Position numbers and translations under genes: made by a program. A DNA stretch of 64,000 nucleotides from Myxococcota bacterium (GTDB taxonomy: Bacteria > Myxococcota > XYA12-FULL-58-9 > JALHOP01): NCBI GenBank assembly GCA_041288095.1, contig JBGGMJ010000112.1, positions 146-64,145 of the forward strand, read 5' to 3'. The stretch's first letter is position 1, and every line of letters begins with the position of its first letter. Shown here one piece after another: positions 29,236 through 31,834 of the stretch. The notes under the pieces were generated by a model. The model saw only the letters and a program-made list of their open reading frames with translations, was not told where the DNA came from and ran no database searches.

Positions 29236-29676
29236 ATGTCTTTCGACAATCCCACCACCCGCCTCTATCGTCGCGACGGCGTCGTCGCCGGCATCTGCGA
29301 AGGGCTCGCCGACCGTTTCGGCATCTCGGCCATCTGGCTGCGCATTGCGTTGATTCTCGTGTCCCTGTTCGGCGGCACCGGCGTCGTGCTCTATCTCGTC
29401 TACTGGGCCATCGTGCCGCGCCGGGAAGACATCGTGCTCGAGCCCGCGGTCACCGACGCCGCCGGTCGTCGTACGTTCCGGCGGACAGTCAGCGATAAGA
29501 AGCTCTCCGGCGTCTGCGCGGGTCTCGCGCGTGGCTGGAACGCGGACCCCTCCCTCATCCGCTTCGCGACACTCGCGCTCTTCTGCGCCAGTGCCGGCAG
29601 CATGCTGCTCGTTTACCTGGTGGCGGTCTTGGTGATGCCGACCGTGCCCGAGGTCGCGCGCCCGCTCGTGGTGTGA
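29236..29676 (+). CDS. PspC-domain membrane protein (two PspC domains)
   Basis: RLYRRDGVVAGICEGLADRFGISAIWLRIALILVSLFGGTGVVLYLVYWAIVP, and a second copy KKLSGVCAGLARGWNADPSLIRFATLALFCASAGSMLLVYLVAVLVMP. Confidence 0.8.
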   Translation: MSFDNPTTRLYRRDGVVAGICEGLADRFGISAIWLRIALILVSLFGGTGVVLYLVYWAIVPRREDIVLEPAVTDAAGRRTFRRTVSDKKLSGVCAGLARGWNADPSLIRFATLALFCASAGSMLLVYLVAVLVMPTVPEVARPLVV

Positions 29677-31112
29677 GCTTGCTCGGGCGTTGCTCCGAGG
29701 CCGTCGACTGGGGCCACGCTGTCTCCCGCCGCCGCGGCGACGTAGGGGAGCTTGAGCGTGAAGGTGCTGCCCGCGCCGACGGTGCTCGCGACCGTGAGCG
29801 AGCCGCGATGCGCCAACGCGAAGTTGCGAGCGATCGATAACCCCAGCCCCGTGCCGCCGAACTGACGCGTCGAGCTGTTGTCGACCTGGAAGAACGAGTC
29901 GAACACGCGCTCGAGCTTGTCCTCGGGAATGCCGATACCGGTATCGATGACGTCGATACGGAGATAGCGATTGCGCTCGGGCTCGAAGAGATCGAAGCGA
30001 TCGCTGCCCACCGGCTTGTCGTCTTCGACGGTGGCCTTGATGACGATCTTGCCGGCTTCGGGAGTGAACTTCACGGCGTTGCCCAAGAGGTTCACGAGAA
30101 TGCGTCTGATCTTGTCGCTGTCGACGTAGATGGGCTTGACCCCGTCCGCGATAATGGTCTCGAGGGTGATGTTGCGCTTCCTCGCCTGCGGCACGATGTC
30201 TGAAAGCGCGAGCTTCACCAGATCGCCGGGCTCGCTCTCCGCCTTCATGATGAGGACGTTGCCCGACTCGATGCGCGACAGATCGAGCACCTGACCGATG
30301 AGCCCGAGCAGGCTCTCGCCCTTCTCGAGAATGGTCTTCACATAATCGCGTTGCTCGGGGACGAGCTCGCCGGCCATGCCTTCCAGCAGCATCTCGGAGT
30401 AGCCGATGACGCTGGTGAGCGGGGTGCGCAGCTCGTGCGACACCGTGGCGATGAAGTTCGACTTCAAGCGATCGAGCTCTTTGAGCTGACCGTTCGCGTC
30501 TTGCAGGGTCTTGTTGACGCGCTCGAGATCCTCGAAGGCGCCGTTGATGCTCGCGATGTGCACGCGGCTCGTCATCAGCTGCTTGTAAGAGCTGTGGATG
30601 ACCACATCGAGCGTGCTCGATAGGTGCGCGAGTATGCGGTCGACTTGCTTCTCGGTGGCGACCGGAATGGTGCGCAGCAAGGTCTGCAGCCGGTAGAGGT
30701 CGAGCTCCTTGTGCTTGGCGAGCTCCGGCGGAACCTTGATGTCACCAGGAGCATACGGGCCGAAGATGACGCGGCCGGCGAGCGATCCTTCGTGGACGAT
30801 GGGCGCGATCTTGTAGCGTAGCCCCACGAAGTCATCGACGACCACCGCCGGGTCCCCGGCGCGGATCGGCTGGTTGCGGAGCAGGTTCACGAGGCTCGTG
30901 AGCTGCACCTGCGTCTCGTGAATGCCGAAGAGATAGCTCGAGAGATGAGCGTCGCCGGCGCGAACATCGACGAGCTTGCCGCCTTCGGAGTCGAAGAGCT
31001 TGATGCCGATGCCGTAGAGCTCGCCGAAGCTCTTGCAGATCTCGCGGAAACCGTCGACGTCCAGCAGCTCGGACAACGGTGGGACTTCGTCGAGGATCGA
31101 TGAAGCGCTCAC
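29613..31112 (-). CDS. cytoplasmic sensor histidine kinase (orphan, N-terminal sensory domain of unknown type)
   Basis: H-box ATVSHELRTPLTSVIGYSEML. HATPase_c N, G1 and G2 boxes (LLGNAVKFT, DTGIGIP, GGTGLGLSIA). No hydrophobic transmembrane segment. The GTG start overlaps the upstream TGA. Confidence 0.85.
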   Translation of the reverse strand: MSASSILDEVPPLSELLDVDGFREICKSFGELYGIGIKLFDSEGGKLVDVRAGDAHLSSYLFGIHETQVQLTSLVNLLRNQPIRAGDPAVVVDDFVGLRYKIAPIVHEGSLAGRVIFGPYAPGDIKVPPELAKHKELDLYRLQTLLRTIPVATEKQVDRILAHLSSTLDVVIHSSYKQLMTSRVHIASINGAFEDLERVNKTLQDANGQLKELDRLKSNFIATVSHELRTPLTSVIGYSEMLLEGMAGELVPEQRDYVKTILEKGESLLGLIGQVLDLSRIESGNVLIMKAESEPGDLVKLALSDIVPQARKRNITLETIIADGVKPIYVDSDKIRRILVNLLGNAVKFTPEAGKIVIKATVEDDKPVGSDRFDLFEPERNRYLRIDVIDTGIGIPEDKLERVFDSFFQVDNSSTRQFGGTGLGLSIARNFALAHRGSLTVASTVGAGSTFTLKLPYVAAAAGDSVAPVDGLGATPEQAHTTSGRATSGTVGITKTATR

Positions 31113-31834
31113 GGTCGTGTCCCCCGTGGCGAGCGCGCAGCCGCTTTGCTCGCGATATCGGCACGCTGCGACAACGACGGCGCGCCCTTGAAGTCACCAA
31201 AGATAGCGCCGAGCATTTCTTGCGCGGTGATCTGGAAGCGGTCCACGAAGTGATATCGCTTGTTCAAGTCGACGAAGAGTAGCTCGATGAGCCCGTAGAG
31301 CGTGTCGAGCACACCTTCGCCGCGAACCGCAACCGCGGGATACACCGGCTCGCGTCCTTTTCGCGCGACCTCCGTCAGCTCGTCGATGCTACGGGCGCTC
31401 GGCAGGTCACGCTTGTTGAACTGAATGACCACCGGGATGCTGTCGGCGTCGAGGCCGTTCTCGGTGAGGAAACGCCGCATGCCCCGCCAGAACTCGTTGT
31501 TGTTCTGCGACTCGCTGCGCTGACTGTCGGCGACGAAGACCACGGCGTCGGCTCCGGAAAGCACGAGGCGCCGAGTCGCGGCGTGGATCACCTGGCCCGG
31601 CACCGTGAAGAGCTTGAGCTTGAGACGATAGCCGGAGCGTGTGTTCATCGTCACCGGCAGCACGTCGAAGAAGAGGGTGCGATCGTTGGCGGTGTCGAGG
31701 GTCGTGAGCCGGCCACACGCATCCGGCTTCAGGGCGCGATGCAATGCTTGCAGGTTCGATGTCTTACCGCTCAGCGGAGGGCCGTAATAAACGACCTTGA
31801 GCACGATCTCGCGCTGGCCAGTGTTGAATTGCAC
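31109..31834 (-). CDS. MglA-like Ras-superfamily small GTPase
   Basis: Collinear with MglA. P-loop VVYYGPPLSGKTSNLQ, switch region RTLFFDVLP, TVPGQV, VVFVADSQ, and NKRD specificity motif (QFNKRDLP). Carries a roughly 50-aa C-terminal extension. Confidence 0.8.
   Translation of the reverse strand: MQFNTGQREIVLKVVYYGPPLSGKTSNLQALHRALKPDACGRLTTLDTANDRTLFFDVLPVTMNTRSGYRLKLKLFTVPGQVIHAATRRLVLSGADAVVFVADSQRSESQNNNEFWRGMRRFLTENGLDADSIPVVIQFNKRDLPSARSIDELTEVARKGREPVYPAVAVRGEGVLDTLYGLIELLFVDLNKRYHFVDRFQITAQEMLGAIFGDFKGAPSLSQRADIASKAAARSPRGTRP

Follow-up and report, generated by a model that had tools for sequence, protein, structure and literature searches.

A SofG-type GTPase and a soluble PocR histidine kinase are encoded side by side across Myxococcota

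Introduction

SofG of Myxococcus xanthus works together with the bactofilin BacP and places the type IV pilus ATPases PilB and PilT at the cell pole. The subject of this report is a 64,000-nucleotide stretch of DNA from a Myxococcota bacterium (GenBank assembly GCA_041288095.1, contig JBGGMJ010000112.1), referred to at its full length as the window, in which the gene for a SofG-type GTPase overlaps the gene for a soluble sensor histidine kinase. On balance, the locus appears to be the local copy of a two-gene operon in which sofG and a dedicated soluble sensor kinase form one signalling unit. The source assembly comprises 5.85 Mb in 212 contigs and is 90% complete.

Several described systems resemble this pair in part. 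The MglA/MglB module, known from M. xanthus and Thermus thermophilus, contains a GTPase with the same fold and catalytic design as the window protein; SofG-type proteins, however, form a separate paralog clade with a C-terminal extension of about 45 additional amino acids (aa), and their genes lie never beside mglB and always beside the kinase gene. The actinobacterial conservon consists of the CvnA kinase, the CvnB Roadblock protein, the CvnC DUF742 protein and the CvnD GTPase, the last of which is a proposed partner or output of the kinase, and conservon GTPases belong to Group 2, with an NxFD G4 motif and no intrinsic arginine finger (PMC4316618). Like the conservon, the window locus encodes an MglA-family GTPase together with a histidine kinase, with no adjacent receiver gene; unlike it, the window pair has two genes instead of four, belongs to another GTPase group with another kinase architecture, and occurs in another phylum. 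Group 1 Rup GTPases have neighbourhoods with a histidine kinase or a GGDEF/EAL output protein (Wuichet and Sogaard-Andersen 2015, PMC4316618), likewise tying a small Ras-like GTPase to a two-component-type output protein, but they represent a different GTPase family lacking the catalytic glutamine, and their neighbourhoods hold four conserved genes, including those for coiled-coil and OmpA-domain proteins.

In the same survey, MXAN_6703 (SofG) and its orthologs are listed as orphans, as are MglA proteins of about 220 aa from Geobacter, and the neighbourhoods of Group 1 MglA proteins are said to 'vary widely', with only occasional PATAN genes; the SofG-kinase pair is not singled out (Wuichet and Sogaard-Andersen, PMC4316618). 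The pair in the window is made up of the following elements.

31109..31834, minus strand: SofG-type small GTPase (MglA family Group 1), 241 aa, assigned by MglA match, tree and AlphaFold2 (AF2) model
29613..31112, minus strand: soluble sensor histidine kinase, 499 aa, consisting of PocR, a long signalling helix, HisKA, HATPase_c and a disordered tail
31109..31112, minus strand: GTGA overlap of GTPase stop and kinase start, read directly, 4 nucleotides (nt) shared

Conservation of the gene pair

The association was followed through 100 loci, 20 from relatives and 80 from a scan of species-representative genomes, with the kinase placed by tblastn. The kinase gene lies directly downstream of the GTPase gene in all of them (20/20 and 80/80). 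The predicted start of the kinase gene is found -8 to +107 nt from the stop of the GTPase gene, with a 4-nt overlap at 42 of the 100 loci and a 1-nt overlap at 9, counts that may slightly favour overlaps because kinase starts were picked nearest the aligned N-terminus. Among 41 relatives, 31 carry both genes in adjacent positions, 10 carry neither and none carries only one. The sensor half of the kinase (aa 1-215) gives at most one match per genome in this 41-genome profile, always beside the GTPase gene, and two genomes that seemed to encode the GTPase alone proved to have an adjacent kinase too, of a more divergent form. In an even sample of the phylum, 123 of the 151 Myxococcota genomes contain the sensor domain, nearly always with just one match, and whole families lack it (f16, with small genomes, 0/14; f18, 0/4; f7, 0/2).

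The sofG and kinase genes are gained and lost together and are conserved across Myxococcota. A pairing that failed to recur in related genomes, the outcome that a previous model-made reading of the DNA letters (the sequence-only reading) had named as fatal to its idea, is not what the survey found. The conserved operon and its frequent frame overlap suggest translational coupling. When all open reading frames (ORFs) within 6 kb were clustered at the 80 scanned loci, no third universally conserved neighbour appeared; the next commonest were ThiL (37 loci), a methyl-accepting chemotaxis protein (MCP, 26), CheW (26), Lon (19) and PilT (17).

The junction in the window reads CGGGGGACACGACCGTGAGC on the minus strand, with the kinase GTG at 31112-31110, the GTPase TGA at 31111-31109, and a GGGGGA run resembling a Shine-Dalgarno sequence at 31120-31125, 7 nt upstream of the kinase GTG. 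The ORF list places the 241-aa GTPase frame at 31109-31834 and the 499-aa kinase frame at 29613-31112, both on the minus strand, where the sequence-only reading had put them; that reading's description of an MglA-family GTPase whose TGA overlaps the GTG of a soluble histidine kinase is borne out by the ORFs, the junction, Pfam and hydropathy alike.

Identity of the GTPase

The GTPase, left as an unplaced MglA-like protein by the sequence-only reading, is identified by sequence comparison as an ortholog of SofG (MXAN_6703), an orphan Group 1 MglA paralog. The identification draws on a tree, on the number and lengths of the Corallococcus paralogs and on synteny, and it runs through the Corallococcus match rather than through the SofG sequence of M. 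xanthus DK1622 itself.

Across 40 relatives, MglA-like proteins fall into three size classes per genome: proteins of about 220-240 aa that are 52-94% identical to the query, proteins of about 195-205 aa that are 44-46% identical, and a long open frame that is about 40% identical. In a maximum-likelihood G-domain tree, a kinase-linked clade (Shimodaira-Hasegawa-like approximate likelihood ratio test, SH-aLRT, 99) is distinct from a clade of 195-aa MglA proteins (SH-aLRT 98). Of the long paralogs of about 340-380 aa, nine group in one clade (SH-aLRT 94), and a tenth, an outlier on a long branch, does not resolve with them. Inside the kinase-linked clade, the window protein is accompanied by proteins from cultured Corallococcus, Myxococcus, Pyxidicoccus, Cystobacter, Archangium and Hyalangium. 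In everything retrieved, this clade is confined to Myxococcota, with the other myxobacterial MglA paralogs as its sister group.

Corallococcus coralloides has exactly three paralogs, of 195 aa (MglA, preceded by MglB), 241 aa and 381 aa. These agree with the published triplet of strain DSM 2259, namely COCOR_01949 (195 aa, with MglB), COCOR_07291 (241 aa, orphan) and COCOR_05345 (378 aa, near PATAN), and with that of M. xanthus, namely MXAN_1925 (MglA), MXAN_6703 (SofG, orphan) and MXAN_2693 (372 aa, near PATAN) (Wuichet and Sogaard-Andersen Table S2, PMC4316618). The length of SofG is given as 298 aa in Table S2 and as 239 aa in the text of the same paper (PMC4316618). Upstream of the Corallococcus 241-aa gene are a divergent GNAT acetyltransferase gene and two PilT-family genes, one of them with a long N-terminus, and the same GNAT/two-PilT/241-aa gene order recurs in an 8.97-Mb Myxococcaceae genome. 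In M. xanthus, MXAN_6704 encodes a GNAT protein (PMC4048283), and MXAN_6705 and MXAN_6706 encode PilT paralogs, the former with the longer N-terminus (PMC13584747). The matching GNAT and PilT synteny identifies the Corallococcus 241-aa gene as sofG.

The window GTPase thus resembles SofG in its clade, its length of about 240 aa with a C-terminal extension, its arginine finger, its catalytic glutamine and the lack of an adjacent mglB, and the Myxococcaceae ortholog that lies beside GNAT and PilT paralogs has the same kinase downstream. It differs in being about 50-54% identical to the Myxococcaceae orthologs, in carrying proline for glycine at the site of Ras G12, and in the neighbours of its lineage, which are rimO and a pspC-domain gene and not pilus or Dif genes. 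The window genome encodes two bactofilins and four PilT-family ATPases, two of these in tandem, so that the known function of SofG would be possible in this organism.

A third MglA paralog (G000 contig C160:34107-34670; locus L002:1486-2499) is a 337-aa protein with an MglA G domain and a C-terminal extension of about 140 aa. It falls in the MXAN_2693 clade and is not known to have been characterised. Among the records used, those of a same-genus locus (L022) and of a locus from a same-order genome (L024, genome G005) are deposited as 'uncultured Bdellovibrionales', and that of L036 as 'Bdellovibrio sp.'; the genome collection places all three in the phylum of Corallococcus and Myxococcus, and the record labels look wrong.

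The absence of MglB

The sequence-only reading had stressed that no MglB/Roadblock, DUF742 or response regulator gene is adjacent to the pair. Locally this holds: no Roadblock gene is present among the annotated neighbours within about 15 kb, no receiver-domain ORF occurs in the whole 64-kb window, and the whole assembly yields no Roadblock (PF03259) match at E<=0.01 and no DUF742 match above the cut-off. As a statement about the genome, the lack of an MglB partner does not stand. Neither mglB nor a 195-aa mglA was found in the window assembly, but a same-genus genome carries recR-mglB-mglA at a separate place, in addition to its SofG-type gene. The 4.6-kb region with recR-mglB-mglA from that genome, searched in the window assembly, returned only weak paralogous matches and no flanks. 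As the flanks are also missing from a 90%-complete assembly, the sequence comparison indicates that the region is unassembled in the window genome, not lost. The lack of an adjacent MglB is a general property of sofG loci and is not peculiar to this organism.

Catalytic features of the GTPase

The residue conservation of the GTPase was assessed over 92 distinct orthologs, and the features concerned are placed as follows.

31760..31783, minus strand: P-loop GPPLSGKT, aa 18-25; G18, P19, S22, G23, K24 and T25 invariant in the 92 orthologs
31679..31681, minus strand: intrinsic arginine finger R52 (DRTLFFD), invariant in 92/92; aligns with TDRTLFFD of M. xanthus MglA
31592..31594, minus strand: catalytic glutamine Q81 (TVPGQ), invariant in 92/92
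31406..31417, minus strand: G4 motif NKRD, aa 140-143, invariant in the ortholog alignment and of the canonical [NT]KxD form
31112..31258, minus strand: C-terminal extension (aa 193-241) following the MglA G domain; conserved helical motif around aa 196-212

In a phmmer search of the Protein Data Bank (PDB), the GTPase matches M. xanthus MglA (6h17) over residues 4-195 with E 2.6e-49, in an alignment that is gap-free as printed, and identity over the fold alignment is 45%; the Arf and Ras families come next, at only about 1e-4. Pfam gives only a weak Arf match. The AF2 model (predicted local distance difference test, pLDDT, 87) has 6h17 as its best PDB match, with a target-normalised template modelling score of 0.92, and its top 14 structural matches are MglA in every case. 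The protein carries GPPLSGKT, DRTLFFD with the intrinsic arginine, TVPGQ, FVADSQ and NKRD, and it displays the marks of Group 1, namely a GxxxxGK[ST] P-loop, a TxPGQ G3 motif with threonine for the usual aspartate, an [NT]KxD G4 motif, the intrinsic arginine and the MglA fold. R52 is the counterpart of MglA R53, the arginine finger in switch I. With the P-loop, R52, Q81 and NKRD all invariant, the GTPase keeps the full set for GTP binding and hydrolysis and should bind and hydrolyse GTP as MglA does.

Residue 20 (window 31775-31777), equivalent to Ras G12 and MglA G21, is proline. This site is glycine in the canonical MglA sequences compared and variable within the SofG clade, with alanine in 42, glycine in 35 and proline in 15 of the 92 orthologs, the proline being found in the window's order; the variation may reflect a different dependence on a GTPase-activating protein (GAP). 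The C-terminal extension has the consensus F.LT..EFL..IF at about aa 196-212 across the 92 orthologs. In the AF2 model it forms helices at 196-200 and 204-212, with block mean pLDDT values of 91 (residues 201-210) and 84 (211-220) and lower values beyond, the last 25 residues being poorly defined.

Architecture of the kinase

The domains of the kinase, whose conservation was assessed over 86 orthologs, are placed as follows.

30585..31070, minus strand: PocR (PAS-like) sensor, aa 15-176; PF10114, E 2e-11
30435..30437, minus strand: phospho-acceptor His226 (SHELRTPL), histidine in 85/86 orthologs
29742..30122, minus strand: HATPase_c catalytic domain, aa 331-457; PF02518, E 1e-27; N345, DTGIGI and GGTGLGL conserved

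The HisKA domain spans aa 217-284 (Pfam, E 4e-22). No membrane segment is predicted in the protein (the top 19-residue Kyte-Doolittle mean is 1.05), and Pfam gives no HAMP match. The H (SHELRTPL), N, G1, F and G2 boxes are conserved, so that the kinase resembles one of a classical two-component system in its intact boxes around H226 and differs from that arrangement in having no adjacent receiver gene in the window. The AF2 model (pLDDT 82) comprises a PAS-like alpha/beta sensor (13-146), a single continuous helix (154-243) running into the DHp domain, a catalytic domain (291-456) and a tail (461-499) that is disordered, with pLDDT below 50, and not conserved; the structures closest to it are those of ordinary sensor kinases.

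Sensor positions 58, 71 and 94 (window numbering of the protein) are Cys-Cys-Cys in 73 of the 86 orthologs. The other 13, which include the window's genus and loci labelled Bradymonadia, have lost one, two or, nearly always, all three cysteines; the window sensor has Ser-Leu-Asp at these positions (window 30829-30941), as do the same-genus copies. This nearly all-or-none loss suggests that the triad is a metal or cofactor site that would be dispensable in some lineages and would no longer be used in that of the window.

One metagenome-assembled genome (L090:6765-8159) encodes a kinase whose degenerate H-box lacks the phospho-acceptor histidine, with LGALSMPLRAL in place of VSHELRTPLTS and glycine at the site of His226. 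Its catalytic-domain motifs and its linkage to a SofG-type gene are retained, which hints that the partnership can persist without phosphotransfer and may have a role beyond it.

Receiver and Dif-type genes in related loci

In M. xanthus, exopolysaccharide and social motility are under the control of the Dif chemosensory system, encoded by MXAN_6691-6696. At about 15 of the 80 scanned loci, a 121-aa single-domain CheY-like receiver (PF00072, E 9e-29) follows directly after the kinase, within a few bases, and at most of these the receiver is followed by MCP, CheW, CheY and CheA genes. The absence of an adjacent response regulator, noted by the sequence-only reading, is true of the window and not of these relatives. 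In one such locus (L032:3594-12692), Lon, SofG, the PocR kinase, the CheY-like receiver, MCP, CheW, CheY and CheA are encoded on one strand, and in loci of this type a Dif-type chemosensory operon follows on immediately from the SofG pair and its receiver. At 26 of the 80 loci, Myxococcaceae included, MCP and CheW genes of Dif type are found downstream within 6 kb, with CheY and CheA in fewer; the label Dif-type rests here on gene content and order, not on a tree. The window itself contains no Dif-type chemosensory genes. The P-loop variant (Gly, Ala or Pro), the cysteine triad and receiver adjacency show no pattern of co-variation.

Neighbouring genes in the window

The pair is flanked by two genes that the sequence-only reading had named correctly, as their TIGR01125 and PF04024 matches confirm.

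31877..33487, minus strand: rimO, TIGR01125, E 7e-146; upstream, same strand, context
29236..29676, plus strand: pspC-domain gene, PF04024, E 5e-33; convergent, context

A 42-nt spacer separates the end of rimO from the GTPase start, and rimO is possibly co-transcribed with the GTPase gene. Same-order loci mostly, though not always, have rimO in this upstream position, and no rimO was detected at more distant loci. The pspC ORF overlaps the 3' end of the kinase gene by 64 nt (29613-29676), within the stretch encoding the disordered, non-conserved C-terminal tail, and pspC was detected in the five closest loci only. To about 15 kb on either side, the neighbours encode metabolic proteins or large proteins of secreted type.

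A 1326-aa protein encoded at window 19371-23351 (plus strand) has as its sole Pfam match an Annexin repeat (E 3.6e-8, aa 382-438), a kind of repeat that is uncommon among bacteria. Two very large ORFs on the minus strand, of 3548 aa (46470-57116) and 1957 aa (38292-44165), have coding-type GC content at third codon positions, and the latter has only a weak match to a PAD middle domain.

Proposed mechanism and alternatives

In the mechanism proposed here, the GTPase and the kinase would be made together, in the window by translational coupling, and the kinase would be the dedicated regulator or effector of SofG. In one version the kinase would read a cytoplasmic signal and set the nucleotide state or the location of SofG; in the other, SofG-GTP would gate the output of the kinase. 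Where phosphotransfer is used, the output would be a stand-alone CheY-like receiver, in some lineages linking to a Dif-type pathway, and in the window genome this receiver would be unlinked or replaced. It is likely that the GTPase and the kinase form a functional unit. A direct interaction between them, with the kinase as dedicated regulator or effector or with SofG gating the kinase, is proposed more tentatively, at slightly under an even chance. Equally tentative, and if anything a shade more so, is the wider picture of a G-protein/two-component hybrid spread across the phylum, in which gating would act directly between a Ras-like GTPase and a PocR histidine kinase, in one direction or the other, with an optional CheY-like output to a Dif-type pathway and a mode of action workable without phosphotransfer where the kinase histidine has been lost.

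Several points weigh against this proposal. The contact between GTPase and kinase is inferred, both proteins having been modelled as monomers, and conserved operons can hold proteins of the same pathway that never touch. In vitro, MglB is able to serve SofG as a GAP (PMC13408092, citing its ref. 43), so that SofG may not need another regulator. Without the cysteine triad of most orthologs, the window sensor may respond to a different input or to none. No receiver ortholog was found in the window genome, in one same-genus and one same-order genome or in Corallococcus, where the best matches are generic and 37-40% identical. Absence of the pair does not track absence of pili: 4 of 5 pair-less genomes have PilT-family genes scoring over the family cut-off, and with these ATPases kept, the pair is no general requirement for pili. 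A search of the open literature found no paper linking SofG to a kinase or mentioning MXAN_6702, which by its number is the gene immediately after sofG, and the original SofG paper (Bulyha 2013), which falls outside this search, could comment on the neighbouring kinase.

As the main alternative, the two genes might be co-transcribed merely for a common purpose in pilus or exopolysaccharide regulation, the kinase signalling solely to an unlinked receiver without contacting SofG, and SofG being regulated by MglB and BacP. The full catalytic core of the kinase would suit such an arrangement, as would the classical order of kinase and receiver at about 15 of the 80 loci, the reported GAP activity of MglB on SofG (PMC13408092), and the many orphan kinases and receivers of myxobacterial genomes, with 68 receiver matches in the window genome. 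However, universal adjacency, frequent frame overlap and strict co-loss are tighter than is usual for genes that share only a pathway; the receiver is absent from most loci, whereas the GTPase is never absent; and the metagenome-assembled L090 locus retains the pair although its kinase has no phospho-acceptor histidine. A shared pathway without contact is accordingly considered unlikely.

Two further explanations concern the origin of the pair. The sequence-only reading had seen in it a stripped-down conservon, that is, a minimal relative with CvnA and CvnD that lost its Roadblock and DUF742 parts. The combination of an MglA-family GTPase with a histidine kinase and no adjacent receiver is indeed common to both systems, and no Roadblock or DUF742 gene is found here, but the GTPase is of Group 1 (NKRD, intrinsic arginine, PGQ) and not of Group 2 (NxFD, no arginine finger), the kinase is a soluble PocR protein and not a transmembrane protein with HAMP and LPxR, and the kinase-linked clade groups with the other myxobacterial MglA paralogs. 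Conservon membership, very improbable on these grounds, was rejected: the GTPase group and the kinase architecture differ, and Roadblock and DUF742 genes are missing. Least probable of all is a canonical mglA that has lost mglB and stands by chance beside an unrelated kinase gene. An assembly with neither a Roadblock gene nor a 195-aa MglA could give that impression; yet same-genus genomes carry recR-mglB-mglA besides this gene, the region and its flanks are missing from the incomplete assembly, and in the tree the window protein is not a member of the MglA clade. A canonical MglA without MglB was rejected by the tree and by the same-genus recR-mglB-mglA.

Significance

The window locus is a typical example of a gene pair that is conserved yet unstudied, in which the GTPase, SofG, is already known and the conserved kinase partner is new. 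Few bacterial Ras-like GTPases have a known role in cell biology. SofG is among them, yet the SofG literature examined names no cognate regulator for it, MglB as a GAP being the only candidate reported. A kinase that is always encoded with sofG and lost with it, often in overlapping frames, is the most obvious candidate partner. The SofG subclade is thereby an exception to the variable neighbourhoods of Group 1 MglA proteins, and its gene pair provides a second, independent tie between an MglA-family GTPase and a histidine kinase, beside the actinobacterial conservon.

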